DNA of 63,989 nucleotides, counting the filler, from Stramenopiles sp. TOSAG23-6 (Eukaryota): NCBI GenBank assembly GCA_900128565.1. It is 5 parts of 5 records of this genome, joined end to end, with 100 filler letters (N's around TTAATTAATTAA, not from the genome) between each part and the next. Parts side by side here need not be neighbours in the genome. Positions count along the whole stretch, not along the records: positions 25,772 to 38,532 come from LT636190.1; 4 more parts are not named here. One strand, 5' to 3'. Made by a program: the position numbers and the translations under genes. The notes below the pieces were generated by a model. That model saw nothing but the letters and a program-made list of their open reading frames with translations. It did no database searches and had not been told where the DNA came from. Below are positions 57 through 49,196 of this stretch, one piece after another (position 1 is the stretch's first letter; each line of letters begins with the position of its first letter).

Positions 57-1460
57 AGTATAATGCAAAATCAAAATATGCCATTACTGCCAGTAGAGGC
101 AGAATTCGTTATTCGTGCTCTTTTAGAGCAGTCTCGTAGTAATGCCAATATTGTACGTTTTCATCATGAATTTCAATTTTGTTTTCGTAGGAAATGTTGT
201 ACCTAAAAAATTTCGAATTTTTTTTTTATTATTTTTGTTTTTTTTTGAGTGTTTTGTGATATATTTTTATACTGATTTTCAATTTTTTTTTTTTTTTTTT
301 TAAACCTTTACTTGAATTTGTTTTGACCAATTTCAAATTTAATATATTTTTTCAAGTATATTGTGAAGATGCATTCCGCGACGTAGTATCAGCGGCAGAT
401 ATTTTATCGTCAATGACGAATGTAATAATGTATGTTTTCAAGATGAATTTCAAATTTATTTTTTAGTACGAAATTTCGTACCTAACGATTTTTTTTTTAA
501 ATTTTCCAAATTTATATTGTACGAAATACACAATTTTTTATTTATTTTTTTTTAAGTACGAAATTTGGTACCTAACGATTTTTTTTTAAAATCATTTGCA
601 CAATACATGTCTCCTACATGTAATGAAAGTGAAAACGATGTTTTTCGACCCCGTGAGAAAAATATTCGAAATTCGTTACATACAAAATTTGGTACAAAAT
701 TTGGTACAAAATTTGATACAAAACAAAAAAAAACAATTTCAAATGGAGCATTTTTTTCGACTCCGACGTCCGATAAGAATTTTTTTAAGACGGAATCTAC
801 AGGTCAATATTTTGTTTCTCCCGATATAAATTTGCTCAGTAGTGATAATATTCAACTTATTTTGAAAAAAAGCCAAAATATACAAAAAAAAATGGACATG
901 CAGAATGAAGTGTATGAAGAATTTAGTGAAAGAAATAACTACAAAAGTTTGTTACGAAGTTGTATTTTGATTGCAAAATGTACTATTCGTTGTAAGAAGA
1001 ATTTTGCAGATGGTAAGAGACCAATAATTCGGAATAATTTAAACCAAATATTTTACACAGAGAAAATATACGTTTTCATCATGAANTTNGAGTTTTTTTT
1101 TNCATACGAANTGTNGTACCTAATGTGTTTTTTTTTGTTTTTTTTTTGATTTTTTTTTGATATTTTTCATCATGAATTTCGATTTGGTTTTCATACGAAT
1201 TTTTGTACCTAGTGTTTTTTTTTGAAGTTTTATTCGAGACGTTTCGATCATTTATATTTTACGTAAATATCTATCTTTCGTACTAAATTTTGTACCTAAC
1301 GAAAAGTTTGACAAAAAAAAATATTGTTTCACCTTGCATTGTCAATAATACAATTTTACGTGTGTTTCACGAAATGATTGAAAAAAAAATAATTGATTTT
1401 GAATGTTCTCAATTACTACAGAGTTTCTGTCAGGTTCAAAAGAATAAAAAGAGATCCTGA
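57..1460 (+). CDS. 3' part of an unknown protein; inferred exons 57-152, 362-429, 609-1067, 1340-1460
   Basis: Removing family introns (<1-56 ending AG, 153-361 GT-AT, 430-608 GT-AT, 1068-1339 AT-AT) gives one open frame ...SNANI|CEDAFRD...NVI|MSPTCNE...TEK|IVNNTILRVFHEM...KRS*. No recognisable domain. Confidence 0.55.
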
Positions 1461-1592: not shown

Positions 1593-2984
1593 TTACCATG
1601 CTTCTTTTGGTTTCCTTCTATGTTTCTTTCTTTCAACCTTTTCCCCTTCGCGCTGTCCTTTTTTTAATCCTTTCCGCCAAGTCATATATTTTAGAAAAAT
1701 ATTTCAAAAAAAAATCGTTAGGTAAAACATTTCGTACGAAAAAACAATTCGAAATTGAAAAAAAAATAAAACATAAATTTTCTTCAAATACGTTGGATCA
1801 TATGGATCTTTTTTAATATCTATTTTATCAAGTGGGTCTTCTTTATCAATTGCCTCAAATTGTTTTACCAAATCTCGCATACTTAATCTACCTTCCGCCT
1901 TTTTCAATAATGCTTCTTGCCGAATTTCTTCAGCACTCTTTCCGCTTCGTTTTCCTAATTTTTTGTCTTCAGCAGCTTGCAATCTTGCATCTTTTGCCAT
2001 TTGGCGTATATTTCTTGCTTTCAGTTTTCGTCTTTGCATTCGCATGGCCATATTTCCTTCAGGCATTCTCTCCCCAGATTTGTTTTTTGCGTTTTCCATT
2101 TCTGATTCAATTTCTAATTGCCTTTTTTCGTCACGTCGCTTTTCTTCCTCAGCTGGTGTTAGTTTTAATCTCTTCATTCGTCTACCATTTCTATTTTTAC
2201 GGGCTTTTGAAGAATTAGCCTTCATTATTTCGTTATGAACACCATATTTCTTTTCATCTTCATCTTGTTCACCTTCGAGGAGACCAATAAAATGATTTCC
2301 TTTAACGCTCGCAATCAAATAGTTTATGTCTACATTTTTGTCTTTGAAAGCCTCCTTTCTTTTCTTTGCCATATTTAACCAAAATTTCCTTCCCAGAACT
2401 TTTTTACGTATTACTGTCTGTAATTGATTTGCGGGGAAGAGTAATGCAGGATGTGTTCTAGCAAATCCCATGAAATCCTTTTTACTAACTTCTGTGAGCA
2501 TGACTGGGTCACAGAAGACTTTTATGTCTTTCATAATTTGTTTGGCACGTGAATTATTTTTCCATCCCGATCCATATACTTCCTTTACAATAAGTTCCAT
2601 TTCATTTTTATCTATTTCCCCACTGTTATCGAGATCATATAAGTCAAATGCAAACGACAACATTGACGGTGTGTCACAGGTACAATAATTCCAAAGTGCA
2701 ACTGCTAACTCTCGAAAATCAAGTTCTCCAGAAGAATCGGCATCAAACATTGAGAAACATCGCTTGGCAAATGCTGTACGTCGCATTTCAAGATATCCAA
2801 AAAACTCTTTGATGGAGATTTCTCCACTAGCATCGTCGTCCATTTCCAAAAATGCAGTGTGCATTTTTTCCAAGTCATCGTCATCAATTTTGAGTGCTTC
2901 GAAAGTATGTTTATATACGGATAGATTTGGATGTTTTGACCAGAAATCAACTCCCGATATTTTGCTACTTCCACAGATCCCCAT
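1593..2984 (-). CDS. Myristoylated EF-hand Ca2+-binding protein (calcineurin B-like N-terminus) with a charged tail; one intron 1684-1776
   Basis: MGICGSSK N-terminus; EF loops DDDASGEIS, DADSSGELD and DLDNSGEID. Removing the intron continues the frame ...LKKMTWRKGLKK...KEAW*. Confidence 0.8.
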
Positions 2985-7543: not shown

Positions 7544-7657
7544 TAAATTTTTCTCCAACGGAAATGAAAAACAAAGTTACCGTTTACATTGGGACAATTC
7601 AATATCTATTCATCTTCAACTTTTAAAGATCTTCATTGCAACGAAACTCGTAATAAA

Positions 7658-12786: not shown

Positions 12787-12886
12787 NNNNNNNNNNNNNN
12801 NNNNNNNNNNNNNNNNNNNNNNNNNNNNNNTTAATTAATTAANNNNNNNNNNNNNNNNNNNNNNNNNNNNNNNNNNNNNNNNNNNN
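12787..12886. other. Artificial scaffold linker
   Basis: N44-TTAATTAATTAA-N44, with stop codons in all six frames. Confidence 0.95.
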
Positions 12887-25671: not shown

Positions 25672-25771
25672 NNNNNNNNNNNNNNNNNNNNNNNNNNNNN
25701 NNNNNNNNNNNNNNNTTAATTAATTAANNNNNNNNNNNNNNNNNNNNNNNNNNNNNNNNNNNNNNNNNNNN
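25672..25771. other. Artificial scaffold linker
   Basis: N44-TTAATTAATTAA-N44. Confidence 0.95.
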
Positions 25772-25865: not shown

Positions 25866-27833
25866 ATGACATCTAAAGTATCTTCAAGGATATCGAAAGT
25901 TTCATCGAAATTTTCACCAAATTTTAAGGCAGATGTTCGAAGCACCTTTAGGAGCATTGACGGCGAAGAAACTCCAGCCATTACAGCTGCCTCTTCACGA
26001 TTCAATATTGTAAAAATATATGTTTTTTTTGGTTTTGGTGTAAAAACAATTGTTAGTTACTAACATTTTGTCCAAAAAAAAAAAAAATTCGAAATTTGAA
26101 ATAAAAAAATCTTTTTTGTGTTTTGTGTAGGAAAAAAAATTTCAGAAGAAAACAAAATGATAAAAACGTACAAGAGCCTCTGTCGCACCTCCAGCACAAC
26201 TGATATTACCGGACCTCATTCCACCTGCTGCACCAGCTAACCCTTTCAACCATTGATTTAATCTATTTACTAAAACAACACAATTTTGACACTCTGCCTT
26301 TGTGACATTTTTTTTTGTTACATCGTCTCGTCGCAGCAATCGAAGATATCGAGCAGCAGCGTACATATATTGTGAAAAAATATTTTTTTTTTTTGAAATT
26401 TTTTTGTTTTTTTTGTTTTTTTGTTTTTTTGTTAGGTACAAAAAATTTTTTACAAAAAAAAAAAAATAAATTTGAAATTGGAAAAAAATAAAATACCAAT
26501 GAAGCTCTCTATAAGACGGAAACCTAAAAATTTGAGGAAGTTTTGTTCTATCTTCTAAATCTGAAATTGCTAATTGTTTGGGGAGTGCAAAAGCATGAAT
26601 ATAGTTACCTCCAAATACTAAAGAATCGGCTGGTGTAAATGTAGTTTGAAGAAATATTTTTTTTTGATTTGTTTTGGTTAGGTACAAAATTTCGTATGAA
26701 AAAAAAATTTTTTTGATTTGTTTTGGTTAGGTACAAAATTTCGTATGAAAAAAAAAATTGAAAAAAAAAATTGAAAAAAAAATCATGAAAACGTACATAC
26801 TGCATGAATCCAACCCGAAGGTAGAAATAATGTATTACCAACAGAGACATTTACTCGAAAACAATCATCACATAAATCTGCAAAAAATATCTCAGATTGT
26901 TTTTCATTTTGAACCCATTCTTCATACTTTTTGAGATTACTTTTTGTTGGTGGAATCATCAAAAATATTTTCTTTCCTCGAATGATACTGTGTTTGTACA
27001 ACAATATTTCAAAATTTTATTTTTTTTGTTAGCCTTATTTCCAAAAAAAAAACTTAAATTTGTTAGGTACGAAATTTCGTACAAAAAAAAATGAAATTGA
27101 AAAAAACGTACTGATACCACACACTAGAGCCTCCAAAGTCAATATGAAAATCAGTATAACTACCTGCAACTGACATTAAACAATATTTTTGTACTCTGGG
27201 AAAGTCACCTGAATGTATACGAGATTTTGGCCACGATGTGTACAAAAAACTAATATCACGAACGACACTTGGAGGTTCAATCAGTTGGCCCAGGGGAGAA
27301 TTTGATACTTCTAGAGATATAACATTAAGAATTCGATCACGTTTTTTTGAAGGGCAAAAGTCTCCATAATAAGAAGCCCAATCACCCAAAGTCCATCCTG
27401 TCAACTGTCTTTGACTTGCCACTTCAATGACCTCTACAGAGACAGCTCTACCCACTGCCTTTTCTACATCCTTCACAGAAAAAGGTTTATTTGGAACTCG
27501 AAGACCCAGTCCTTGTTTGCGTTTTACAATGAAAGGTTCAGCAAATGCATTTGTTGAAGAAATCCATTGTTTTGTGAGAGTGGATCCGTCATGAAGCTGA
27601 CGAACTGAATGTTTTGAAAAAGAACTTTCATTTAACAATATTTTACGAAATTTTTCAGAGTCAAAAATGGGAATACCACCATCAAGGTCTGTATAATTCA
27701 TTTTACCTTTGCTTTTAAGCCTTGCACTTCGTACAGGCCGATGGGTGTCAATAGTGGGTAACACACTAGACACAGATGTCGGTGGAGTATCTTGTGGGGG
27801 TGGCTTCGATTTCATCCATTCAGGCATAGACAT
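25866..27833 (-). CDS. JmjC histone demethylase, KDM2/KDM7/JHD1-like, 3' truncated; introns 26988-27111 (GT-AG), 26639-26796 (GT-AT), 26365-26496 (GT-AT), 26003-26171 (GT-TG) and one running from 25865 to the scaffold edge
   Basis: LNVISLEVS, PRVQKYCLMSVAGSYTDFHIDFGGSSVWY|HIIRGKKIF, LPSGWIHAV|FTPADSLVFGGNYIH and FRFPSYRELH|WYAA are all restored on intron removal. Confidence 0.9.
26365..26496 (-). other. GT-AT intron that fixes the splice register
   Basis: No AG anywhere in the intron; GT...AT removal gives the conserved HWYAA. Confidence 0.85.
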
Positions 27834-28085
27834 TATAACACTACTAATAATATTAACTTTATGACTTCTCAAAAATTATTTTTCTAGTACGTACCCTAGC
27901 CTACGTATTTTACCACGACTACAAACAAACTTTTTTCGCAAAATTGACTCATGACTCATGATGAGGCTAACCCTAACCCTAGTCTAGTCTAGCCGGAGGA
28001 TTTCAAGATTCAATTTTCAAAAGGCCTTTTCGCGTTTCCGATTAAATTTTTCTCTTACCTTTTTCGTTCTCATGTTCAACTAGTA

Positions 28086-30535
28086 ATGCGACGCTTTCAA
28101 GTTATAATAGTACTGCTTTCAGTTGCAACTATTAGCACAATAAATGCATTGAATGAAACAGCTTCGCCTATTTTGACTTCAAGAGAAGAAAAAAAACACT
28201 GGGAAGCTATCGCTGACAACTTATTTTTGGAAAGTCTACCTTCGGATTCTTTACATGAAGAGTTGCAGCGTGCAGCAACTACGTCATCTTTTGCTCTTCG
28301 AATCTTTGTCGATCGGATTTTATCCCAACGGCCTTTGTTGAAAGTGTCAGATCTTGCACATAATTTGCAGACAGCAACCACCGGCTGTGCTGGTCCATCA
28401 AACGAAGAAATAAAGACACATTCCCGATATTTGTGGGAAAGTGGTGATTTGAGTGAATTGAATATGGAAATTTTATATACACAAGCCAGAGAGTGGCCAT
28501 TTTGCGCAGCGCTACAAAATGATATTGCGGCGTTTGAACTTCGTTCTCAAAATTTCAAAGAAGCAGCCAAACGTTTATTACTTGCACTTCGGCTCTTACC
28601 GGATGGAACAAAAGGTAAAACTTACATTAAAAATATGTATCTTCTAATAGATAACCTTGAAGTCACTGTGAAGCAAAACCCAGCTCTTTGTAACAAATTG
28701 GTTGGCGATGGTATATATATCTTTAAAGCTTTCTCACATTTTTTTTTGAGCCGTCGTGAATTTTCAAAAGTTGTGTCAATACAAAAGAGAATTGATTCTT
28801 TTTATTGTACGTTCAAATTCGAATTAGTTTTTCTTCGCGGAAAAATCAATTTGAAATTATATCCAAAGAGCTTTTTTCATAAATTTTGAATATGACATAT
28901 TTTTTCACAATACATGTATAGGTGTTGACGGTCAAAAACGATCTTCGGGGACGTGCGCTAGTCCAAATGGGCAGAGACATTCAACTAATTTTTCTGATTC
29001 AGTTTCAACATTTCGACAAAAAAATATTTTGGATCAAAAATATATAAAAACGAATTTGACAACATTGACTGAAGAAAATAATAAACAACAAAATGATAGT
29101 TGTAAGACACAAGATAAAGAAATATGCAGAAATGTATGGAAAGAAAGTGATATCATGAAACTTCGAAGTCGAAGTCTGAAATGCCCAGTCATTAATTTCT
29201 CTGAAATTAATTCAATGGAATTTTATCACAAATACGTAGAAGGAAAAGATGGTTTTGGAACTCCTGTTGTTCTTCGAGGTGCAATAAACCATTGGCCTCT
29301 ATTTCATCTGGCATTGGATTCGAAAAGAGTAGAAAAAAATGAAAAAAATGAAGAAAAAATTGAAAACAATAAAATAAAAAATAAAAAAAATGAAAAAAAT
29401 GAAAAAAATAAAGAAGAAAGAAAACGTGTCGCTGCAAAACGTCTGTTACATTGGATGAGGGATAATTGGGGTGCGTCGTGGGTCAAAGTTAGTGTTGCTC
29501 CTGGAGGTAAGTTTGATTCTGTAGAACCATGGAATATGTACGTTTTCATCATCAATTTCAAATTTATTTTTGGTACGAAATTTTGTACCTAAACATTTTT
29601 TTTTTTTTTGACATTTATGGTCATTTATGGTTTCATCATTCATTTCAATTTTTCAATTTTTTTTTTTTCATACAAAGTTTTGTACCTGATGATTTTTTTT
29701 TTGTTTTTCATAATACATGTGGCAGAGAAAAGATGGTTCAAAGTGGACGAGTGAAAACAAAAAAGGAAGCTCTGGTGTTCTTGCTCTCCCTGCACAAACA
29801 TGCTCTTCTTATGAAACATTTGTAGAATTACTCATCAAAAGGGAGCATAAAAATAATATATCACATCATCAAAGTCCTATTTCATCTGAAAAAAAACAAG
29901 AAAACAAAAAAAACAAAAAAAACAAAAAAAACAAAAAAAACAAAAATTTAAATTTTCATTCATTTTATGATAAAAATCCAAGTTTTTATTTACAATATTT
30001 TGACACGTTGAGATTAGGAGGAGAAACATGTATCTTTTATTTTTTTTTTTTTGTATGAATTTTTTTTTCATAAAAATTTTGTACCTAACAAAAAACATTT
30101 TGAAATATTTTTCCAAAATACATTTCTCTCGGAATTAGCCCCTGAACTTAAAATTATTCGAAATTTAGGATCTACACCAGGATTGGTGTTAGATGCAACA
30201 AATATTTGGCTTGGTGAAGGGTGTACAGATGGCAAAATACATGTACATTTTAATCATTTATTTTTTTTTCATACAAAATTTTGTACTTGGCCATTTTTGT
30301 AACAACAAAATCAATTTTTTTTTAAGAATTTTTTCACATTACATTTTGATCCACACGAAAACATTTTAGGTCAAGTAGTCGGTCGAAAACTTGCTGTTTT
30401 GTATCACCCAGGAGCATCAGCTCAATTATATCATACAAGAAGTACAGGAGATGAAAAATATATACGTTTTCAAAATTATTTGTATTTTTTTTTTTTTTTT
30501 GGTATGAAATTTTTTACCTAACATTTTTTAAAACC

Positions 30536-30566
<31 letters not shown>

Positions 30567-31081
30567 ATAATTTTTCACAATATATTTATTTCAGGCTTGG
30601 TTAAACTATGAATATCCAAATACTTTTACAAGAATAGATGATTTTAAAAAGCTTCCTGTCACTAGTCATTTCTCCCCAGTTAACATTTTGAACCCTGATT
30701 ATGAAGCTCATCCTGATTATCGTGATGCTACTGCCATTTTGTGTGATATACAACCAGGGGATGCATGTATGTTTTTTTTTTTTTTTTTACAAAAAAATCG
30801 AATTTTTTTTTTTTTTATAATTTTTTTTTGAAATATTTTTCCAAAATACTTTATTCATCCCGTCGTTTTGGTGGCATGAAGTTTTTTCATGGCCACAATC
30901 TATTCAAGTGAACTTAGAAGATGAATCTAAAATCCATAATATACTAAACAAAAGTGAGATTCAAAAGAACGATTGTCCGATAGGTCATATAAAAAACAAT
31001 CCGAATGAAGCTGACGATGCAGGTTACAATTTTGCTGTGAATTTTTGGTATAAACCGTCTAAATCTTCAGTCTCATGTACG

Positions 31082-34007: not shown

Positions 34008-35248
34008 ATGAGATGTTTGAAGCATCTTACAATATTGTTATCATTTTTAGCGTGTCTCTCGACATTTGCAAAGCTATCAAAAGTAGTGACTGATGTGATG
34101 TGTCTAAACAATGTATATAAAACCTGTAATATTCGAGTCGCTGTAATATATGGTCTTGCAAAAGGGCAAAACGAAGATGCATTTGAGCAAGGTTTTCTTG
34201 CGGCAATGAGTGAGGTCTCCACTAGATATTCTTCAACTTGGATTAATCTGTTTAAATACGAAGGGAAGCAAATAGCAGACGTACTTGAAGTATTAACAGG
34301 TTTTGATTTATTACTTGTCAAAAGTAATTGGTACTGGAGTGTAGACACTTTTGTGAGGCAATATCTCAGAGGGGTAATGTGGGATACAATTCCCAAGATA
34401 CTTTTGATTTCAGGAAGTGCTTCCCCACCGCCTGGGTCTGAGATTTTATTTTATAATGTGTTACTCTATGAAACGGAATGGTATAAACCCGAAATAGAAA
34501 GACATCCTAGAATAGTGCATGCATTTGGAATCGATACAAGAAAAATGAAACCCCTACCTGTATGTTTAATTTTTTTCAAATTCTATTTTTTTTTCGTACG
34601 AAATTTTGTACCTAACAAATTTTTTAGATTTTTTTTTGAAATATTTTTCCAAAATACCTGAATTTATGGCCAAACACGGTAATATAAAAAAGTGGGACTA
34701 TTTATCTGCTGGAATGCTTGTAGGGTATAAAAGATGGCACAAACTTGCTCATGAACGTAAAGGTCGACGACTTCTCGTAGGTCGTGCTGATCAGCCTGAA
34801 AGTGAAGCGATTGTAAAAGAGTTAGAAGATGCGGGTATATGTTTTATTTTTGTTTCAATTTCGAATTTATTTTTCGTACCAAATTTTGTACCTAACGAAT
34901 TTTTTTTTTTTTTTCGGTAAAAAAAAAAATATATTTTTCACAATACTTGTTGTAGTTCTTCCAGAAGTTTCGTACGAAAAATTATGCGAGTTGATTAATC
35001 TATCACATCATGTATATGTACCCGCAGCCCTACATGGTGGGGGAGAAAGATTAGTTCTTGAAGCACGTGCAGTTGGGACTGATGTTATTGTCGAGAGTGA
35101 TAACCCAAAGTTGATTGGAATGGCAAACGGACCTATATACTCACATGATTATTATGCTGTACAAATATTAAGAGGTATAAAAATGTCCCTTGGTGTAAAT
35201 ATAAGCCCTATAACAGATACAAATGATAAGAATACCAAAGAGTTATAA
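34008..35248 (+). CDS. GT-B (GT4-like) glycosyltransferase with an N-terminal signal/anchor; introns 34560-34659 (GT-CT) and 34837-34948 (AT-TT)
   Basis: GYKRW..L and YVPAALHGGGERLVLEARAVG motifs; three ORFs fuse in frame (KPLP|EFMAKH; EDAG|VVVLPEV). Confidence 0.7.
34560..34659 (+). other. Type example of the non-AG intron family (GT...CT)
   Basis: GTATGTTT...TTCGTACGAAATTTTGTACCTAAC...TTGAAATATTTTTCCAAAATAC-CT; removal restores the glycosyltransferase frame. Confidence 0.8.
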
Positions 35249-36149: not shown

Positions 36150-38407
36150 ATGAAGATATTTGGATTGACCGCATCGTTTGTATTGCTAGTTTTTTGTATC
36201 TTAAATCAGTTATTTGCCAATGCGAATCAAAACTTTGATTCTTCAAGGGTTGCAAATGTCTTTATTGTACAGCTTCATGAATATTTGTTGCCCTCCAAGC
36301 TTACTGCTTTAATTGAGACTATTATTGGGTCTCCAATAGATGCAACAAATACCAGCCTACAAAATTTGAATTCAAACGATACTAGTGATGTAGTCAAAGG
36401 ATGGAAGATGGTTGAACGGCACAATAAAGTATTTCGTGAGGAAATCCCAACTGACTTTGCAGTAATTCATTGTAGCGGTAACACAAAAGAAGTTTCTGCT
36501 ATTATCAAAATCATTAAAAACTCAAGTGTTGTACGCAATGTTATACCCGAGCGCCGATACTTTGCGTCTTCAAAAGTTGCCGATATAGGGAAACAATTTA
36601 AACATTCACAGTGTCCAACTAACTCAAGTGAAAGTGAAAGTTTTTCTTCCAACACTCATGATAGTTACACATACTTTAATCCCAATATTCCCAATACAAA
36701 TCAACAAACCAGTAACCAAAATATGAATACGCGAAAGTTGCTGTCAAGTAGCTTAGGAAATTCTCGGTCTTCTGTTGATCCATTACATATTGGTAAAAGT
36801 CCCCCATACGTACCACATCTTTCCTATTATGAAAGACGATCAATGTATGTTTTTACTTTTTTGAATTTTTTATCTAAATTTTTTTCGTACGAAATTTTGT
36901 ACCTAACAAAAAAAAATCAAATTTCAAAAAAAAAAATATATTTTTTCAACAATACATGGTCGAGGAATTTGGAGCTCCTCTGTTGTGGAAGAATAATCTC
37001 ACGGGAAGTGGGGTCAAAGTTGGAGTGTTAGACACTGGAATTCGCGAAAAACATCCACATATTCTTCATCTAAAGGAACGTAGTAACTGGACGTACCAAA
37101 ACTCCGAGGCAGATGGAGTAGGACATGGTACGTTTTGCGCTGGTATGATTTCTAGCTCGTATCCAAAATGTGCTGGTTTTGCACCTAACTCTGAAATTTA
37201 CACATTTAAAGTGTTTACGGACAACCAAGCTTCGTTTTCGTCATGGTTTTTAGACGCTCTCAATTATGTCCTTTTTAAGGAAATTGAATTAGTGAATCTG
37301 AGCATTGGTGGACCAGATTGGCGAGATGCCCCATTTATTGATAAAATACGGGAATTGGGTGGACATGGTATCGTGTTTGTATCTGCTATTGGTAATGATG
37401 GTCCATTATATGGCACTTTAATGAACCCTGCGGATCATATGGAAGTTATTGGGGTCGGTGGAATAACCAATACTGGAGAAATTGCACAATTTTCATCAAG
37501 AGGTGCAACAGTTCATGAATTGCCGTATGGGTTTGGTAGGGTTAAACCAGATATTGTAGTATATGCTGAAGGACTTCTTGGTTCTACTATCTCTGGAGAT
37601 TGTCAAACTCTGAGTGGTACTTCAGTAGCTGCACCTGTAGTTACTGGTGCTCTTGCATTGTTGATGAGTATCCCTCGTTCAAATAAGTCAATTCCAATAA
37701 ATCCAATAAAATTTGATTTATCTCTGGATACATCAAATGATAAAAAAATAAAAAGTGAGAACCCTAACCCTAATAATGACAGAAATAACCCTAACCCTAA
37801 TGACAGAAATAAAGGAATAAAAAACAAACTTCGTTGGAATCCTGGAATAATGAAACAAGCTTTAATACATTCAGCAAAACCGATAAAAGGGATGTATGTT
37901 TTATTTTTTTTTTTTTACAAAAAAAACGATTTTTTTTTTCGTACGAAATTTCGTACCTAACAAATTTAAGTTTTTTTTTTGAAATATTTTTCCAAAATAC
38001 AAAAGTATTTTTGAACAAGGTGCAGGTGTGATGAATCTTCAAGGTGCCGCTGATTTTCTACAAACATATCCTCCAGAAGGCATGTACGTTTTTAACATCG
38101 AATGGTATACTTTTTTTTTTCGTACGAAATTTCGTACCTAACGAATATTTTTTACGAAAAAAAAAAAAAAAAAAAAAAAAAATATTTTTTTTCACAGTAC
38201 ATGGCAACATTATTTCCATCTTCACTTGACTTCACTGATTGTCCCTATATGAGTCCATTTTGTGAACAACCTACGTATTATTCTGCAATGCCAATTGTCG
38301 CAAATGTAACTATATTAAATGGAATGGGCTCTCATGGCTACATTGAAAAACAACCTATTTGGAAAGGGGGTGAAAATGGTGAACATATAAAAGTACAAAG
38401 TTCTTAT
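36150..38407 (+). CDS. MBTPS1: Site-1 protease (SKI-1/MBTPS1 subtilase), 3' truncated; introns 36845-36957, 37894-38002, 38084-38202 and one from 38408 to the scaffold end
   Basis: VGVLDTG, GHGTFCAG, NLSIGGPD, SAIGNDGPLYGTL.NPAD, ELPYGFGRVKPDIV, LSGTSVAAPVV, FEQGAG, DCPYM.PFC.QP.YY and NVTILNGMG; RKLL processing site. Confidence 0.92.
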
Positions 38408-38532
38408 GTATGTTTTATTTTTTTTTTTTTTTACCGAAAAAAAAAAAAATCGATTTTTTTTTCTTTTTTTTTTTTCGTACGAAATTTTGTACCTAACAAA
38501 TTTTTTTTTTTTGGTAAAAAAAATTTTGAAAT

Positions 38533-38632
38533 NNNNNNNNNNNNNNNNNNNNNNNNNNNNNNNNNNNNNNNNNNNNTTAATTAATTAANNNNNNNNNNNN
38601 NNNNNNNNNNNNNNNNNNNNNNNNNNNNNNNN
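38533..38632. other. Artificial scaffold linker
   Basis: N44-TTAATTAATTAA-N44. Confidence 0.95.
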
Positions 38633-38755
38633 CGTATGTAATAATAGGAAAAAATTAAAAAACTTAAAATTGTTAGGTACAAAATTTCGTACAAAAAAAA
38701 AACAAAAAAAAAAAAAATTTTAGGAAAAAAATTGAAAAAAAATAAAACATACATG

Positions 38756-40764
38756 TAATTCTTGTCTAGTTAACCCCACTTCCTCATTACATTGATCAAA
38801 ATGTATATTTCGTGTCCCTCCTGTTGGCTTCCAAGGATTTCGTGCTATATATGATTTTTGGTTGGGGTTAGGGTTACGTTTATTCTTTTCCAAATGTTCG
38901 AGAATATTCCTATGCCGTACTTCATCTGCAGCTACGCCACCATACATGTATTTTGGAAAAATATTTCAAAAANNNNNNNNNNNNNNNNNNNNNNNNNNNN
39001 NNNNNNNNNNNNNNNNNNNNNNNNNNNNNNNNNNNNNNNNNNNNNNNNNNNNNNNNNNNNNNNNNNNNNNNNNNNNNNNNNNNNNNNNNNNNNNNNNNNN
39101 NNNNNNNNNNNNNNNNNNNNNNNNNNNNNNNNNNNNNNNNNNNNNNNNNNNNNNNNNNNNNNNNNNNNNCAAAAAAAATTTTAGAAAAATTTGTTAGGTA
39201 CAAAATTTCGTACGAAAAAAAAAATATAGACAAAAAAAAAATTGAAAAAAAAATAAAATATACACGTAGGCACGTCCACTAACTTCTTTACCTATTTGAG
39301 ATGTCTTTATGTCCAATAATGTAGGTTTTATTTTACGTAATTTTGATTGAATTGTTTCTTCAAGTATTCTTGCATTATTACTGATTTTATCTATAATCTT
39401 TTTTTTGTTTTTAAATAAAGTTGAATCTATTGTATTACAACGAATACGACGATTTGTACATGATGTTGTTTGCATGAAATGCATACCAGAAATAAATCGC
39501 GGTAAAATTTTGCTTGGTGCTGTTTTAGGCCGTTGTTTGCTTTGTTGTTGTTGTTGTTTTTGTTGTTGTTTTTGTTGTTGTTTTGTTGTAACTGCTAGCT
39601 TTCTACTCCTACTAGCGGTAGTAGACGCCATTAATGAATAATTTGGCAGTTTTTTATGATTGCTTTTAGGGTTTTTAGGGTTTTTAGGGTTTACCATTGA
39701 ATGTCTTTTTTCATTAGGATAATTAGGATTTTTAGGATTTTTAGCATGTATAGGCGTATTATTCTTCTTGATAATGTTTGATTGTGTTTTTGTAGCATTT
39801 TTAGTTACAGAATATGTTTGATCTATTTGGTTTGGCGAATCTTTCTCTCTACTATTCAAAGAAAATTTATGTTGTTGTTGTTGAACATCTTTATTAGATT
39901 TAATTGAGTATATAAAGACTTCTTTTTGTTTGTTTTGTTTGTTTTGTTGATCTATTTGGTTTTGTTTGTTTTGTTGATCTATTTGGTTTTGTTTGTTTTG
40001 TTTGTTTTGTTTTTCACTGTCTATGTATATATAATCAATATTCATCAATGAAGCCAAACTTTTTGTATAATTCACTGTTTTTATATATTCTAATCTCTCA
40101 TTTGTATTTGTTACAATAGTAGTCTGTTTCTCAGTCACTTTGACTATATTAGGGTTAGGGTTTGTATTAGGGTTACTAAAATTTCCATGGCAAATTGAGG
40201 TCCAAATATAAATGTAATGAACTCTGTTATGTGTACTAATTCTAAACCTTCTGAAGCTAAACAAAGAAAAAGAAGCTTTTTTTCGCGGAAAGAAAATTCA
40301 GTTTTACATTGGCTATTTTTTTTTTCACGGAAAGAAAACTCAGTTTTACATTGGCTATTTTTGGAATTTGTGTCACCAACACCAAAAAGACACACTTCTA
40401 AAACATGTATAAATTGTGGAAAATGTAATGTATCAGACTCACTGGTGGATGTATTTCGAAAGAGGCGAAGAAAGTTTCGTTTCTTTCCAGTAAAAGTTAA
40501 TTTTTTTCCAATATTTTTACGTAAAACATCAATCTCCAAAGAAACACGGCGTTGCCTATCCTGGGCTTGTTGTATAAATATTTGTTGTACACTATCTCGC
40601 CTACAAAGAAAACCACGAATATAGGGCTGTAGCTTCTGCATTGAAACGACGTGTCTACTGGGAAAGTTGCGTAACCGCTCTCGAAACTTTTGTTGTTGGC
40701 TAATTTCGAAAAGCTTTTCGTCATGAAGTTCATACCAAGTCTCTAGGGCTGCTTCGTCAGTCAT
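38756..40764 (-). CDS. Left-arm mirror copy of the IQ-motif protein; lacks a segment near 40175 relative to the right arm
   Basis: Reverse complement of 49197-51257 except for the collapsed segment. Confidence 0.5.
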
Positions 40765-41177
40765 AACTTTTAATCTTTTATAAAATGATGAATATATGTT
40801 GCATATTATTTCATTATTTACTCTTACTCACTTGTATACATGGTATGCGTAGAAGTAATCTAGTAGTAGTTGGTACTACAGAAATAGTACTGCTACCGTA
40901 GTGTAGTCGTACTACGTACTACCCGTACTAATGCCAAATCTAAATATAGCAGAGTGAAAAAAAAACAACTGATGATGGTGTTGGATTCGGATTGCTTTGG
41001 CAGGTTTGTTCACAATATAATTTGGGAGACGAGGAGACACCAAAAAAACCAAAAAGAAAGACAAAACGAAAAGACAAAAACTTTGATTTGAAGTAGTATA
41101 GGTTGATACGTAGATTTGAATTCTCTTATAAAACTATTCATTATATTGATTGATCCTGCCTTTAAAAGGTGACTACA

Positions 41178-41807
41178 ATGACACTTTCATTAAGTTGGTT
41201 CTTGACTCTCTTTGTGGCTATTTTATGTGACACAAAACAATGCGCACAAGGCAAAAACATAACTGATAAAATTGCGACAGAGCAACTTATACCAGCTTTT
41301 GAACAGAAGCCAATAATGAAACGACTGAAGTGTACGGCGTGTCGTGCAATTTCTTTTGAAATGTACGAGGCTCTTGTAAATCTTGATAGGAAACGGGGCA
41401 ATAGCAACAAAGTCAAAGAATTCGAAAGGTCTGAAGTTTTGGAATTTATATGTGAAGAGCCACCATCAGTAGATTTCTCGCATAAGTCCCACAAGAAGCG
41501 AAAGGAAACTCAAATTCCTAACGTAGCTGAACAATATGGTTTACAGAAAAGAAATAACAGAGTCACAACTCTTTTTTCAAAGTCAAATGAAATCAGTCGT
41601 ACGCGAGGTGCTTGGATGTGGAATTTTTTTACAAATTTATGTGGCGATTTACTTGGAGATTACGAAGATGATATAAATATGCTATACACAAACGGTCAAG
41701 ATTTTTTAGAAACATTTTTGTGTGTAAAGGAGAACACTTGGTGTGTTGATATTGGTATGGACTTTGACCATTCTTTACAATTGGAAAACGAACTGCGTGA
41801 ATTATAA
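41178..41807 (+). CDS. Canopy/MSAP-like (DUF3456, saposin-like) ER protein, left copy
   Basis: Signal peptide, LKCTACRAI, EVLEFIC, CGDLL..YED, FLC....WC and C-terminal REL. Confidence 0.75.
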   Translation: MTLSLSWFLTLFVAILCDTKQCAQGKNITDKIATEQLIPAFEQKPIMKRLKCTACRAISFEMYEALVNLDRKRGNSNKVKEFERSEVLEFICEEPPSVDFSHKSHKKRKETQIPNVAEQYGLQKRNNRVTTLFSKSNEISRTRGAWMWNFFTNLCGDLLGDYEDDINMLYTNGQDFLETFLCVKENTWCVDIGMDFDHSLQLENELREL

Positions 41808-42362
41808 TTTTTAAAAGTTTGGACAACAACTCTTCATGGGCTTTCTTGGGCTTTCTCATGGGCTTTCATGACCTTTCATGACCTTTCATGGCCTTTCATG
41901 ATCTTTACTATAATATATATAGTGATAAATAGTGACATGGACTTGAAGTATTGAAAAATCACAACATTATTAATACAACTAGTATAATGATACTTGGTGG
42001 TATAGTTTAAGCCAATATTGAATATTGTAAGAAATATAAACACACAAATATGATTGATAGATGTAAGAACTATATACATAAAAAGAATAAAAAGAATGTA
42101 AAAATAAATTAAACATTTGAATAAAAAAACAAAACAAAATGAAATATTATTATTTTGGAAGTCAACGACAATTTATTTTCTCATCGCTTGCTAAGCCCGA
42201 ATAAATTGAATACATTCGAATCTTAGTCGTCAGATTAGTTCAAAGTACATCGTAATACGTTGTGTATACTATACTTGAATAATATGCAATATAATATATT
42301 ATATGTAATATATATATAAGCCATCATTACTATAGTAACACTAAAACATCATAATTGAGCAC

Positions 42363-42770
42363 TTATTCAGCTTCTTCAGCACGAAGACGTCCGTTCGCAT
42401 TGAGAACTGTAATTCGGAGTTCAGCAGCGCGATCAACAATCATCTTACGTTTTCTAGCGGAAACATTGTGGCAAATTTCAGCAGCAAATTTACGGTTCTG
42501 CATGATGAGCATCTCAAGTTCAGCAGTGTTGGAAACACGGAATTTTTTGAGACCACATGGCAAGACGTGACGAGTCTTTTTGTTGTTTCCGTAACCAATA
42601 TTTGCCATTTTGATGGCACCACGGAAGCGACGTCTAACGCGGCAATCAATACCACGAGGACGACGCCACGATTCTTTGACACGCATGAAGCGATTGGATT
42701 GGAAACGCTTGAATGCTTTCGTGCGTTTCTTGACCTTTTTCATGGTTTTGAGAGGAGCTGCGGCGACCAT
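42363..42770 (-). CDS. RPL32: 60S ribosomal protein eL32, left copy
   Basis: [33 protein letters not shown] and [13 protein letters not shown]. Confidence 0.97.
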
Positions 42771-43659
42771 CTTTATTGTAAGGGGAGATATGAATCAAGA
42801 GTATTTTGAGGGTTAGTCTACATGTTCCAAATATTATTATTTGAGTGAAACGAAAAATACACGATATACACGCCACTACTATGCACATATATGTATGTGT
42901 ACATGCATGTAAGTTCGTAGTGTGTAGTAGGAATAAAAATGTGAAAAACACACAAAGAAAAACCGATAAAAGAAGAGAAACCGATAAAAAGAAGAGAAAC
43001 CGATAAAAGTTATAATGAGCTCACTCTCTAGAGTGTCAATGAAAGAAGCATGGAGAAAGTTTGAGTATATCATTACTTCTATACTATCAACTCATCCATT
43101 CTCATAGATTCATTACTTGTACACTTTTGAGAGCGTACTTGTTGTACACATAGTATAATAAATCATTACTGTGTGGGAAACAGTAGAGGAAGAGGTCTCT
43201 CAAGCTCGTCGAGCGGCCATCACCGTACTTGTTGTTACATGAACAAATTTAGGAGAAGTATATCCTAAAGAAGACATGTACAGGTGCGCATTGCCTTGAA
43301 CTATAACAATACATGTATTAAATACCAAAAAATGAGGATTCAAGCATCGTTGGGAGAGATTTTACTTACCTTAATATCAATCTGACTTATGACTTTCGAC
43401 GCGAAACCCACAGACAGGCACAACACAAGCAAAAGTTGCGAAAATTGCGGACTGAAAGTATTTCTGACAAACCTGCTTTAATATTTTGATAGAAAAAAAT
43501 GTAGGGTACCCGGTTCTCTTCAGTTCAGCGCAAAAAATCGTCGACATGTATAGAAAATGATGACTCTTACTCATCGAAAGTTGTTGAACTTTTTCACTTT
43601 ATTCTATAGTTGTTTCTATAGTTTTATATCAGTTATATTGTTGATACGTGAAAGAAGAA

Positions 43660-44181
43660 ATGGTTAGATCAAGAAAAGCTATACGAAGAAAGGGTGGAAC
43701 TCGTGTTAAGCGAAAACAGAAAAGTCGGTTACACCATATTAGCAACTCTTTTGCAAACGAAAAGATTGCAAAGCGATGGAACCATGCCAAAACTCTACGA
43801 CAAAACTATGCTAAACTTGGCCTAGCCTTTGACTCTAATGGTAACTTGGCTGGTTCGAAACAAATATCGGAACATGCAATACATGCTACAAAAGCAGAAA
43901 CAGATATAGTGGAGTTATTTGACCTACCGTTAGGTGGCGTTGATCTTTCAGTTAGCGGTAAACCACGAGCTCATGTAAGCCCTGAGGATAAAATCTATCT
44001 CAACAAGTTGATGAACAAATACGGCGAAGACTACGGTGCCATGGCTAGGGATATTAAACTGAATTTTAAACAACACACTCGTGCGTTTCTCGCAAGACGT
44101 TGTAAGAGACTTTTAACATATCAAAAGGAACATAGTGCAGTGAAAGTATATGGACCTATGAATGAACAAAACGAAAATTGA
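43660..44181 (+). CDS. NOP16: Nucleolar protein 16, left copy
   Basis: W...KTLRQNYAKLGL and KYGEDYGAMARDIKLN..Q.T. Confidence 0.88.
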   Translation: MVRSRKAIRRKGGTRVKRKQKSRLHHISNSFANEKIAKRWNHAKTLRQNYAKLGLAFDSNGNLAGSKQISEHAIHATKAETDIVELFDLPLGGVDLSVSGKPRAHVSPEDKIYLNKLMNKYGEDYGAMARDIKLNFKQHTRAFLARRCKRLLTYQKEHSAVKVYGPMNEQNEN

Positions 44182-44403
44182 ATGAGAAAAATGAAAGAGA
44201 AAAATGAATTCCAGTCGAACGAATAATTTTGTCTAGGCTTTCATTATGTTTTACACTTAAGAATATAGTACACCTAAAATCATTATAGTAGGGATTATAC
44301 AACTAATATATACCACATTTGTTTTTTCAAATTTATGTACAGTTTTATAAAAATTGGTACAAAATGTAGAATTTTTCAGAATTTTTCAGGTTTTATTTTT
44401 CCC

Positions 44404-44936
44404 TCATTTTTTATCTTTCTGCATTTCCGAAATTCCCTCATCAGTCATAGTATGATTATTATGTTTATTAGCGGAACTATTTTTCTTTCGGATACATCGA
44501 ACAATTGGCATTACACAAATTGTTAAAAATAATACAAAAAATGTGATAAGTAGCGCTAAGATATAATCCGGGAAAAAATCTATTGTACAATCTGGATAGT
44601 GTGTTCCCATGGTAACGATGGCTTCTTCTGGAGTTTGTTTTGTTTCAGTTACATTTATTGTGAAAAAAAATTGCAAAATTTTTTTTTTTTGAAATTTGGA
44701 AATTTTTTTGGAATTTTTTTTTTGGACATTATATTTAAAATTCATGATGAAAAACATACCTGCCCTTCGTTAACAAATGGAGCACAGCTTTCCCAAGACA
44801 AAACAGGTTTGTTATCACTATAACCTGTCCATCGAATACAAGGTCTTTTAGATACATCTATAGATGAGCCACTAGTAGGACTATCATTAAATACTTCAAC
44901 AATTGCAAAATTATGATTTGGATAAAATTTATATGC
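44404..44936 (-). CDS. 3' exons of a single-pass membrane protein, left copy
   Basis: Mirror of 45025-45557. Confidence 0.5.
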
Positions 44937-45024
44937 AAATATTGTGAAAAAATATTTTTTTTTTTTTTTTTTTAAAAATTAATTTTTAAAAAAAAAAAAA
45001 AAAAAATATTTTTTCACAATATTT

Positions 45025-45557
45025 GCATATAAATTTTATCCAAATCATAATTTTGCAATTGTTGAAGTATTTAATGATAGTCCTACTAGTGGCTCATCTA
45101 TAGATGTATCTAAAAGACCTTGTATTCGATGGACAGGTTATAGTGATAACAAACCTGTTTTGTCTTGGGAAAGCTGTGCTCCATTTGTTAACGAAGGGCA
45201 GGTATGTTTTTCATCATGAATTTTAAATATAATGTCCAAAAAAAAAATTCCAAAAAAATTTCCAAATTTCAAAAAAAAAAAATTTTGCAATTTTTTTTCA
45301 CAATAAATGTAACTGAAACAAAACAAACTCCAGAAGAAGCCATCGTTACCATGGGAACACACTATCCAGATTGTACAATAGATTTTTTCCCGGATTATAT
45401 CTTAGCGCTACTTATCACATTTTTTGTATTATTTTTAACAATTTGTGTAATGCCAATTGTTCGATGTATCCGAAAGAAAAATAGTTCCGCTAATAAACAT
45501 AATAATCATACTATGACTGATGAGGGAATTTCGGAAATGCAGAAAGATAAAAAATGA
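45025..45557 (+). CDS. 3' exons of a single-pass membrane protein; intron 45202-45308 (GT-AT); 5' part missing at the palindrome centre
   Basis: Open frame AYKFYPNH...NEGQ|VTETKQ... followed by the TM segment YILALLITFFVLFLTICVMPIV. Confidence 0.55.
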
Positions 45558-45779
45558 GGGAAAAATAAAACCTGAAAAATTCTGAAAAATTCTACATTTT
45601 GTACCAATTTTTATAAAACTGTACATAAATTTGAAAAAACAAATGTGGTATATATTAGTTGTATAATCCCTACTATAATGATTTTAGGTGTACTATATTC
45701 TTAAGTGTAAAACATAATGAAAGCCTAGACAAAATTATTCGTTCGACTGGAATTCATTTTTCTCTTTCATTTTTCTCAT

Positions 45780-46301
45780 TCAATTTTCGTTTTGTTCATT
45801 CATAGGTCCATATACTTTCACTGCACTATGTTCCTTTTGATATGTTAAAAGTCTCTTACAACGTCTTGCGAGAAACGCACGAGTGTGTTGTTTAAAATTC
45901 AGTTTAATATCCCTAGCCATGGCACCGTAGTCTTCGCCGTATTTGTTCATCAACTTGTTGAGATAGATTTTATCCTCAGGGCTTACATGAGCTCGTGGTT
46001 TACCGCTAACTGAAAGATCAACGCCACCTAACGGTAGGTCAAATAACTCCACTATATCTGTTTCTGCTTTTGTAGCATGTATTGCATGTTCCGATATTTG
46101 TTTCGAACCAGCCAAGTTACCATTAGAGTCAAAGGCTAGGCCAAGTTTAGCATAGTTTTGTCGTAGAGTTTTGGCATGGTTCCATCGCTTTGCAATCTTT
46201 TCGTTTGCAAAAGAGTTGCTAATATGGTGTAACCGACTTTTCTGTTTTCGCTTAACACGAGTTCCACCCTTTCTTCGTATAGCTTTTCTTGATCTAACCA
46301 T
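45780..46301 (-). CDS. NOP16: Nucleolar protein 16, right copy
   Basis: Identical mirror of 43660-44181. Confidence 0.85.
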   Translation of the reverse strand: MVRSRKAIRRKGGTRVKRKQKSRLHHISNSFANEKIAKRWNHAKTLRQNYAKLGLAFDSNGNLAGSKQISEHAIHATKAETDIVELFDLPLGGVDLSVSGKPRAHVSPEDKIYLNKLMNKYGEDYGAMARDIKLNFKQHTRAFLARRCKRLLTYQKEHSAVKVYGPMNEQNEN

Positions 46302-46591
46302 TTCTTCTTTCACGTATCAACAATATAACTGATATAAAACTATAGAAACAACTATAGAATAAAGTGAAAAAGTTCAACAACTTTCGATGAGTAAGAGTCA
46401 TCATTTTCTATACATGTCGACGATTTTTTGCGCTGAACTGAAGAGAACCGGGTACCCTACATTTTTTTCTATCAAAATATTAAAGCAGGTTTGTCAGAAA
46501 TACTTTCAGTCCGCAATTTTCGCAACTTTTGCTTGTGTTGTGCCTGTCTGTGGGTTTCGCGTCGAAAGTCATAAGTCAGATTGATATTAAG

Positions 46592-47190
46592 GTAAGTAAA
46601 ATCTCTCCCAACGATGCTTGAATCCTCATTTTTTGGTATTTAATACATGTATTGTTATAGTTCAAGGCAATGCGCACCTGTACATGTCTTCTTTAGGATA
46701 TACTTCTCCTAAATTTGTTCATGTAACAACAAGTACGGTGATGGCCGCTCGACGAGCTTGAGAGACCTCTTCCTCTACTGTTTCCCACACAGTAATGATT
46801 TATTATACTATGTGTACAACAAGTACGCTCTCAAAAGTGTACAAGTAATGAATCTATGAGAATGGATGAGTTGATAGTATAGAAGTAATGATATACTCAA
46901 ACTTTCTCCATGCTTCTTTCATTGACACTCTAGAGAGTGAGCTCATTATAACTTTTATCGGTTTCTCTTCTTTTTATCGGTTTCTCTTCTTTTATCGGTT
47001 TTTCTTTGTGTGTTTTTCACATTTTTATTCCTACTACACACTACGAACTTACATGCATGTACACATACATATATGTGCATAGTAGTGGCGTGTATATCGT
47101 GTATTTTTCGTTTCACTCAAATAATAATATTTGGAACATGTAGACTAACCCTCAAAATACTCTTGATTCATATCTCCCCTTACAATAAAG
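46592..47190 (+). other. Canonical GT-AG 5'-UTR intron of RPL32 (mirror copy 42771-43369)
   Basis: AG|GTAAGT donor; GACTAAC branch point about 40 nt before TACAATAAAG|ATG. Confidence 0.65.
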
Positions 47191-47598
47191 ATGGTCGCCG
47201 CAGCTCCTCTCAAAACCATGAAAAAGGTCAAGAAACGCACGAAAGCATTCAAGCGTTTCCAATCCAATCGCTTCATGCGTGTCAAAGAATCGTGGCGTCG
47301 TCCTCGTGGTATTGATTGCCGCGTTAGACGTCGCTTCCGTGGTGCCATCAAAATGGCAAATATTGGTTACGGAAACAACAAAAAGACTCGTCACGTCTTG
47401 CCATGTGGTCTCAAAAAATTCCGTGTTTCCAACACTGCTGAACTTGAGATGCTCATCATGCAGAACCGTAAATTTGCTGCTGAAATTTGCCACAATGTTT
47501 CCGCTAGAAAACGTAAGATGATTGTTGATCGCGCTGCTGAACTCCGAATTACAGTTCTCAATGCGAACGGACGTCTTCGTGCTGAAGAAGCTGAATAA
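47191..47598 (+). CDS. RPL32: 60S ribosomal protein eL32, right copy
   Basis: Identical mirror of 42363-42770. Confidence 0.95.
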
Positions 47599-48153
47599 GT
47601 GCTCAATTATGATGTTTTAGTGTTACTATAGTAATGATGGCTTATATATATATTACATATAATATATTATATTGCATATTATTCAAGTATAGTATACACA
47701 ACGTATTACGATGTACTTTGAACTAATCTGACGACTAAGATTCGAATGTATTCAATTTATTCGGGCTTAGCAAGCGATGAGAAAATAAATTGTCGTTGAC
47801 TTCCAAAATAATAATATTTCATTTTGTTTTGTTTTTTTATTCAAATGTTTAATTTATTTTTACATTCTTTTTATTCTTTTTATGTATATAGTTCTTACAT
47901 CTATCAATCATATTTGTGTGTTTATATTTCTTACAATATTCAATATTGGCTTAAACTATACCACCAAGTATCATTATACTAGTTGTATTAATAATGTTGT
48001 GATTTTTCAATACTTCAAGTCCATGTCACTATTTATCACTATATATATTATAGTAAAGATCATGAAAGGCCATGAAAGGTCATGAAAGGTCATGAAAGCC
48101 CATGAGAAAGCCCAAGAAAGCCCATGAAGAGTTGTTGTCCAAACTTTTAAAAA

Positions 48154-48783: not shown

Positions 48784-49196
48784 TGTAGTCACCTTTTAAA
48801 GGCAGGATCAATCAATATAATGAATAGTTTTATAAGAGAATTCAAATCTACGTATCAACCTATACTACTTCAAATCAAAGTTTTTGTCTTTTCGTTTTGT
48901 CTTTCTTTTTGGTTTTTTTGGTGTCTCCTCGTCTCCCAAATTATATTGTGAACAAACCTGCCAAAGCAATCCGAATCCAACACCATCATCAGTTGTTTTT
49001 TTTTCACTCTGCTATATTTAGATTTGGCATTAGTACGGGTAGTACGTAGTACGACTACACTACGGTAGCAGTACTATTTCTGTAGTACCAACTACTACTA
49101 GATTACTTCTACGCATACCATGTATACAAGTGAGTAAGAGTAAATAATGAAATAATATGCAACATATATTCATCATTTTATAAAAGATTAAAAGTT

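Follow-up and report, generated by a model that had tools for sequence, protein, structure and literature searches.

The window analysed here, a stretch of 63,989 nucleotides (nt) joined from five records of the draft genome of Stramenopiles sp. TOSAG23-6 (GenBank assembly GCA_900128565.1; ~33% G+C), carries an introner-type intron family whose host genes are unrelated to one another: a JmjC (Cupin_8) gene, a KDM2-like gene, a site-1-protease gene, an EF-hand gene, and others. We recognize 29 complete copies, i.e., those with both ends definable in this 64-kb window, counting copies mirrored in a palindrome once. Four of them start with a base other than G, and our main concern is the copy at 30462, between exons 4 and 5 of the JmjC gene, whose first base is A. 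Coordinates of the introns discussed, together with the exons and motifs around this copy, are collected in Table 1.

An introner-type family with non-AG ends

The family is built on one plan, GTAYGTTTT ... TACCTAAC-like motif ... TTTTTC[AC]A[AC]AATAC plus 2 nt, which resolves into the donor GTAYGTTTT, CATCATGAATTTCAA or ATTTTTTTTTCAATTTCGAA, a T-run, CGTACGAAATTTTGTACCTAAC, a 3′ module reading GAAATATTTTTCCAAAATAC or TTTTTCACAATAC, and two further bases. The donor consensus is complementary to the U1 and U6 small nuclear RNAs (snRNAs), with T at position 2 in all 29 copies, A at position 3 in 28, and G at position 5 in 25. A branch-like motif, TACC[TA]A[AG], is present in 23 copies; family-wide, its nearest occurrence is 32 to 155 nt away from the 3′ end, with extended copies accounting for the values of 126 and 155 nt. 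Excision from the G of GTAYG to 2 nt beyond ..TAC yields the longest open reading frames (ORFs) on both sides in 24/29 copies; the exceptions are ties or near-ties at 430, 31077, and 63765, and two copies for which another offset does better (1068 and 31760, the latter a last intron). Copies terminate in AT (21), TT (3), AA (2), or, once each, CT, GT, and AG. With a terminal AG absent from 28/29 copies and a GT start in 25/29, the family falls outside the GT..AG class.

Homology bears on these ends in three genes. In the JmjC gene, Cupin_8 profile positions 221 and 222 adjoin across the intron at 30767-30851 (GDA-LFIP); this intron has no AG from its branch-like stretch to the exon, and use of the nearest downstream in-frame AG would remove the strand with the metal-binding His. 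In the KDM2-like gene, the exon end and exon start around 26796-26639 align to residues 286 and 287 of KDM2A (chain 9phv_A). For the site-1-protease gene we built a hidden Markov model (HMM) from 45 of the 119 listed non-self homologues. The product spliced at the family ends scores 661.4 bits against this model, compared with 654.9 bits when intron 37894 is extended to the AG 3 nt downstream, and with 657.2 bits for the pair GT38088..AG38197 taken from the deposited gene model. At the third intron of this gene, 36845, the deposited junction (36774-36964) scores 660.8 bits, a gap of 0.6 bits that does not discriminate.

The register is less straightforward at many copies, as the 5′ exon flank equals the last two intron bases in 17/29 (15 AT/AT, one CT/CT, and one TT/TT), such that the mRNA cannot separate registers 0, -1, and -2 there, one of which would be AT..AC. 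A 2-bp target-site duplication is possible, judging from these repeated borders, with only a slight excess over the ~13.5 matches expected from the marginals. The minus-strand intron at 26496 has unlike flanks: its flank TG and the G of the next exon form a Trp, and the resulting ..ELHWYAAARY aligns gaplessly to ..EMCWYVLERY of KDM2A, whereas registers -1 and -2 put Leu or Met in place of this conserved Trp. In the other direction, register +1 at 30767 creates a TGA stop. Provided that one rule holds family-wide, these two junctions place the intron start at the G of GTAYG, and they back the register that an earlier note on this DNA, made from the sequence alone, had assumed. On the evidence of reading frames and homologous proteins, the family consists of genuine non-AG introns, most copies being GT..AT.

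First-base variants and the JmjC locus

Of the 29 copies, 25 begin with G, three with A (1068, 30462, and 34837), and one with T (1776, minus strand); 26 end in T. The combinations of first and last base are G..T (23 copies), A..T (2), A..A (1), G..A (1), G..G (1), and T..T (1); the A..A case is 1068, which would become A..T if that intron ends one base later. The counts are too small to test for an association between the two ends. The donor strings quoted in the earlier note are as it gave them: ATACGTTTTCA at 30462 and 1068, ATATGTTTT at 34837, GTATCTTTT at 30030, and, on the minus strand, TTATGTTTT at 1776. Each of the four variant donors is followed by the family body, which makes them members of the family and not chance strings. 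As for the string ATACGTTTTCA itself, 30462 and 1068 are its only matches in the window, against an expectation of 0.16; a count of two was attained in 1 of 100 shuffles.

Position by position, G1 is retained in 25/29 copies, G5 in 25/29, C(-3) in 23/29, and C(-10) in 24/29, against 29/29 for each of T2, T6, T7, T(-5), and A(-4). Departures from the consensus at G1, C(-3), and C(-10) and at two G5 sites go to A or T in 18 of 18 cases, the remaining two G5 variants being a C and a 1-nt deletion. G1 thus departs from the consensus at a frequency like that of other G/C positions in the element (4 to 6 of 29 copies), a pattern that fits weak constraint combined with AT-biased decay. Among the variants, the three whose 3′ modules could be scored reach 0.81 to 1.00, compared with 0.62 to 1.00 in G-first copies; 1068 has no family-like match. 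A compensatory change, in which G1 to A together with C(-3) to T restores a terminal pair at 30462, was considered and set aside, the pattern being absent at 34837, 1068, and 1776.

In the JmjC gene, removal of the six internal family introns leaves an intact ORF of 548 amino acids (aa) with no other lesion in seven exons; the 30243 junction completes its HxD motif, the later His is retained, and exon 1 is closely preceded by a seventh family 3′ end. If 30462-30585 is retained, translation stops at residue 408. Within 45 nt of 30462 there is no GT in phase with the family 3′ end (restart at 30586) or with a CAG at 30594, an acceptor that the earlier note had overlooked. This CAG is in phase with the A-first donor and would give an AT..AG intron and a slightly shorter ORF (545 aa, against 548). 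Both borders of the intron carry the ATAT repeat, so registers 0 to -4 give an identical mRNA, and none of them is G-first. The earlier statement that no nearby GT has the required phase consequently stands for the family 3′ end and for CAG 30594, but not in general, as six other in-frame GT/GC..AG pairs exist. All six need GC30420 or an acceptor at 30632, 30637, or 30651, and all six bypass CAG 30594 and translate family intron sequence. As read from the frame, the 30462 copy needs a first base other than G, barring a dead gene or an erroneous base.

The other three variants are less constrained. At 34837, where the earlier note saw an A-first donor, it overlooked a GT two bases upstream (34835, GTATAT; GTATATGTTTT) that is in frame with AGs at 34955, 34964, and 34967. 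The gene around 34837 has no Pfam family and no PDB match, and the family and canonical products therefore go unranked. At 1776, the same-phase GT reported 15 nt upstream is indeed there, at 1791, in phase with the family 3′ end; this is the last intron of the EF-hand gene, followed by 30 basic codons to the stop, so failed splicing costs only a C-terminal tail. The element at 1068, a candidate coding intron, likewise comes last, with at most 35 codons downstream: the family-register restart comes 9 codons before a stop, and a 1-nt shift extends this to 35 codons. The claim that the first base is relaxed is accordingly plausible and holds up in part, a non-G start being forced by the reading frame at one locus (30462) and optional at 34837 and 1776.

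Several observations weigh against removal of the 30462 copy, or of the variants in general, with a first base other than G. No transcript or cDNA-derived protein for the four variant genes was found in protein databases. The EF-hand ORF has 14 protein matches, of which the only one from the same species is the unspliced read-through ORF of the window itself; the others are at most 46% identical, have tails that cannot be aligned, and come from relatives that include Bicosoecida and Globisporangium. Exon 1 of the JmjC gene has 0 matches among 1.84 billion representative proteins, and exon 5 has no match among six candidate longer proteins. At the 30462 junction, Pfam leaves 6 + 18 residues unaligned, the alignment of exon 4 to PDB ends 9 residues short, and exon 5 meets only chance-level PDB matches (E of at least 0.94), the first ~21 residues of this exon sitting in a loop outside any profile. 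Because the junction lies in a loop aligned neither by Pfam nor by solved structures, homology fixes neither boundary. At 30462, 34837, and 1776, GT..AG pairs that keep the frame are available. Two of the four variants, 1776 and 1068, are in last introns, where the unspliced form alters only the C-terminal tail, a placement for which relaxed selection fits as well as a tolerant spliceosome. Finally, N linkers and a perfect palindrome mark the assembly as a draft, so that for the population the A at 30462 is a provisional reading.

Table 1. Family introns discussed in the text and features around the copy at 30462 (positions in the window)
Feature	Position	Strand	Remarks
AT..AT family intron, starts ATACGTTTTCA, ends ..CACAATAT-AT	30462..30585	+	Phase 0; between JmjC exons 4 and 5
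JmjC/Cupin_8 exon 4 (..FDPHENILGQVVGRK..DEKY)	30345..30461	+	Cupin_8 positions 148-181; JMJD5 structures
JmjC exon 5, family register (LFQAWLNY..QPGDA)	30586..30766	+	LPVTSHF onward is Cupin_8 positions 183-221
Candidate acceptor AG of TTATTTCAG, followed by G	30593..30594	+	9 nt past family 3′ end, same phase
Branch-like motif TTACCTAAC	30514..30522	+	64 nt from 3′ end of 30462 intron
GT..AT family intron (reference)	26639..26796	-	KDM2A residues 286/287 consecutive across junction
GT..AT family intron, unlike flanks TG / AT	26365..26496	-	Fixes register via KDM2A Trp (..CWYVLERY vs ..HWYAAARY)
GT..TT family intron	30767..30851	+	Cupin_8 positions 221/222 meet
GT..AA family intron, site-1-protease gene	37894..38002	+	6.5 bits over AG 3 nt downstream
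GT..AT family intron, site-1-protease gene	38084..38202	+	4.2 bits over deposited GT38088..AG38197
AT..TT family intron, ATATGTTTT..CAATAC-TT	34837..34948	+	Phase 0; canonical GT34835..AG34955 also in frame, 9 nt longer
TT..AT family intron, TTATGTTTT..AAAATAT-AT	1684..1776	-	Last intron of EF-hand gene; GT1791 in phase
ATACGTTTTCATC element with three branch-like motifs (nested/tandem copies) and single N bases	1068..1353	+	3′ end ..AATAC-AA or ..AATACAAT, one base further

Competing explanations and related systems

Taken as a whole, the observations seem best explained, at what we would call an even level of confidence, by point-mutated introner copies in which G1 is weakly constrained, with the 30462 copy probably still removed with A first. 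The four variants would be point-mutated copies, three with G changed to A and one with G changed to T, of a young introner family in a heterotrophic stramenopile, transposon-like and high in copy number. The family brings its own signals: a donor of yeast-like form (GTAYGTTTT), a conserved 3′ module, and in most copies a TACCTAAC branch-like motif. Copies would be removed from the G of GTAYG to exactly 2 nt beyond ..TAC, mostly as GT..AT introns lacking a terminal AG. In step 2 of splicing, the two terminal bases of an intron normally contact each other as G-G or A-C, as the earlier note stated and as PMC13326754 restates. Where the last base is T (26/29 copies), this contact cannot be G-G, and the usual contact between G1 and G(-1) could not define these introns; G1, once freed in this way, would drift by AT-biased mutation at the rate of the other G/C positions of the element. 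The 30462 intron would most likely be cut at the homologous position, A first, with the 3′ cut either after the family AT or at the CAG 9 nt downstream, and at 34837 and 1776 the nearby GT may serve instead. That the A- and T-first copies are actually spliced, and by a U2-type spliceosome, is what we infer from these patterns, as is the reason for which G1 might be dispensable. As a matter of speculation, the step-2 contact could have been lost or replaced, and G-U and A-U could both pair.

If G1 were instead obligatory, the variants would have to be rescued by other GT donors joined to canonical or family-type acceptors, an arrangement that we regard as unlikely. The upstream donors at 34835 (with its three in-frame AGs) and 1791 (with the family 3′ end) would suit it, and at 30462 the donor GT30482 (GTATTTTTT, which resembles the working donor GTATTTTAT at 26496) combined with AG30632 gives a 539-aa ORF. 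Any GT option at 30462 skips the strong CAG at 30594, which is in phase with the A-first donor, needs a weak purine-rich acceptor 38 to 43 nt farther on, and translates family intron sequence. Moreover, comparable pairs arise by chance: when we scanned 21 introns for in-frame GT/GC..AG pairs (donor within 45 nt on either side, acceptor from -45 to +70 nt), all 21 had them (1 to 18 each), and their presence at every scanned intron means that they weigh little either way. Homology also prefers the family ends to the nearest AG alternatives in three genes, the site-1-protease intron 36845 being non-discriminating. An explanation that we likewise judge improbable, and to about the same degree, is that the variants are recent alleles of a wild cell, deleterious or neutral, that are spliced poorly or not at all and are tolerated on account of a dispensable gene or a last-intron position, in which case they would be uninformative on what the spliceosome tolerates. 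The location of 1776 and 1068 in last introns (30 and at most 35 codons downstream, respectively) is consistent with this, as is the read-through form of the sole same-species EF-hand protein in the databases; in addition, the 30462 copy has a C to T change at -3, and both 30462 and 1776 have T for G before the branch-like motif. Yet a compact genome would be heavily burdened by 4 dead introns among 29 within 64 kb, the JmjC gene is otherwise free of lesions in its seven exons, and the 3′ modules of the three scored variants fall inside the range of G-first copies.

Two further explanations we consider highly unlikely. In one of them, the boundaries are shifted by 2 bases, such that the family is AT..AC (AT/GTAYG ... 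ATAC/) and the apparent exon flank is intronic, the first base being the A of a target-site duplication. The exon flank is AT in 18/29 copies and the core ends in AC in 23/29, and with flank and last two bases alike in 17/29 the mRNA is ambiguous there. This register, however, loses the conserved Trp at 26496 (both at -2 and at -1), scores slightly lower at 37894 (661.0 vs 661.4 bits), draws on flank matches that are barely above expectation, and has no in-phase AC at 30462. It would also shift GUAUGU out of its usual U6 register. The other, to which we give equally little credence, holds that the first-position bases are errors of sequencing, amplification, or assembly. The N44-TTAATTAATTAA-N44 linkers, the perfect 4.8-kb palindrome, and the single Ns inside the 1068 element, in a draft assembly, speak for this, but four substitutions at one homologous position in 29 introns are far above any plausible error rate, and the same G/C to A/T changes occur at other positions of the element.

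An A as first intron base is also what the 30462 copy has in common with AT-AC introns, whether U12-type or the rare U2-type. Their donor reads ATATCCTT, compared with ATACGTTTT here, where there is no in-phase AC and the last base would be T or G. We reject the U12 type, as did the earlier note: the 30462 donor, ATACGTTTT, is not RTATCCTT and lacks ATCC, and the expected placement of the branch site TCCTTAAC is not found, the branch-like TTACCTAAC lying 64 nt from the 3′ end. U12 branch sites lie ~10 to 20 nt from the 3′ end. RTATCCTT shows no enrichment in the window (8 matches, with 4.37 expected) and never coincides with a family intron; Rfam identifies no RNA families in the window, and hence no snRNA genes. 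A U2-type AT-AC intron at 30462 is also rejected, since the sole nearby AC (30577-30578) is out of phase and the last base would be T (30585) or G (30594). In yeast, a G1-to-A change is reportedly suppressed by a 3′ G-to-C change, and the likeness is again confined to A as the first intron base.

The family most resembles introners, which have been surveyed in Micromonas, Aureococcus, and dinoflagellates (10.1101/2022.06.06.494994; PMC12130899; PMC7789003). Like introners in general, the copies are short, near-identical, high-copy introns in unrelated genes that bring their own splice signals, with what may be short inverted termini (here ATGTAT/ATACAT) and short direct repeats at their borders. 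Aureococcus introners keep canonical splicing motifs according to PMC7789003, whereas here 28/29 copies lack a terminal AG and 4/29 lack an initial G. The same source describes the introns of Amoebophrya, another marine protist, over 60% of which are non-canonical with no dinucleotide signature and with U1 undetected; the non-GT/AG ends, border direct repeats, inverted repeats near the ends, and repeated families recall those seen here. The present family differs from them in its strong conventional GTAYGT donor and fixed 3′ motif, and its terminal stems are no better than those of shuffled sequences. A third comparison is Fritillaria borealis, where, according to PMC13326754, introns breaking the G-G / A-C rule are removed at scale by U2-type splicing, an introner origin is discussed, and duplicated U2AF subunits and m6A changes in snRNAs are reported; that organism is a tunicate, and its intron ends are AG-A(N) according to PMC7789003. 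Our literature search, judged from titles and abstracts for Incisomonas, found nothing on non-canonical introns or introners of this stramenopile lineage (including MAST-3 and Incisomonas). Splice sites go unmentioned in the searched passages of the MAST single-cell genome paper (PMC5778133), and our search on GT-AT introns of protists, which turned up a diplonemid paper (PMC12621601), found nothing on this lineage. What is new here is a variation on known non-canonical introner-type introns.

Other features of the window and wider meaning

Several further observations concern the elements themselves. At 30534-30566, 38150-38180, and 36910-36940, the stretch separating the branch-like motif from the 3′ module contains an A-run of ~30 nt instead of the T-run seen in other copies; the predicted fold of the 30462 intron pairs this A-run with the T-run upstream of it. 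The candidate 6-bp terminal inverted repeat (ATGTAT..ATACAT) is paired in the minimum-energy folds of two of five copies, not including the 30462 intron, and the fold z-scores of the five (-0.01 to -1.27) are no better than those of shuffled controls. With the stem in only 2/5 folds and no z-score past -1.27, we reject end-to-end pairing of the introns as evidence. The six copies without TACC[TA]A[AG], at 30243, 30767, 45202, and 58748 (plus strand) and at 63765 and 26496 (minus strand), keep the frame, which indicates that this motif is not essential.

Other features lie in or near the host genes. Upstream of the JmjC gene, a plus-strand ORF of 298 codons (27993-28915) terminates in a donor resembling that of the family (GTACGTTC, near 28806), and the end of a family 3′ module is at 28913; a long extension of the JmjC protein at its N terminus, signal-like at the start, is possible. 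In the KDM2-like gene (26960-27111, minus strand), the intron after ..GGSSVWY has a family donor and no family 3′ module, and of the residues that KDM2/7 structures lead one to expect between VWY and IPPT, about a dozen are not accounted for; a small exon or an atypical junction may lie at this point. Two divergent intron-free genes, at 5329-7317 (minus strand) and 7568-10051 (plus strand), encode paralogous cysteine-rich, EGF-like surface proteins with a common central block, ..YTADRIRDALQDLPN...

The window also bears marks of its assembly. A perfect inverted duplication occupies 40173-49788, with arms (40173-44980 and 44981-49788) that are 100% complementary and have no spacer. Further mirrored stretches pair 39170-40175 with 50038-51043 and 38600-38972 with 51038-51410, so that genes and their family introns appear twice. 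The palindrome looks like an amplification or assembly chimera rather than biology. Linkers of the form N44 + TTAATTAATTAA + N44, with stops in all frames, were read directly at 12787-12886 and 38533-38632 (the latter on the minus strand), and 25672-25771 and 51378-51477 are assigned as linkers by the same spacing of N-runs. As contigs are joined by these linkers, the order of neighbouring segments may be arbitrary.

The deposited model of the site-1-protease gene, P0001 (eukprot:GSMAST32.ASY1.ANO1.25.1), spans 36150-38512 on the plus strand. It is 100% identical to the window in three of four aligned blocks, the fourth differing only by a 46-residue gap where the model skips an in-frame N/P-rich stretch, and it enters an intron at a contig end. 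The window therefore comes from the assembly to which this handle belongs, and the handle and the EF-hand relatives together indicate a heterotrophic stramenopile of the MAST type. The model uses GT..AG junctions only and disagrees with the family ends at all three family introns that it spans, where the HMM favours the family by 4.2, 6.5, and 0.6 bits. Gene sets of such organisms are therefore probably systematically wrong.

G1 is among the most conserved nucleotides of eukaryotic genes and is used in both catalytic steps of splicing. It is conceivable, although we lean against it, that the spliceosome of this stramenopile places both cuts by internal signals (TAYGTTTT at the 5′ end and ..TAC 2 nt before the acceptor), the terminal Gs being dispensable. 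If true, introner copies here would lose G1 by AT-biased drift yet stay accurately removed, and the lineage would be the third independent one, after Fritillaria and Amoebophrya, with splicing that does not depend on the terminal bases, in this case within a single family that makes the rules readable. Near-identical introns lacking a terminal AG, some of them also lacking G1, would amount to a natural mutational series for the end requirements of the spliceosome.

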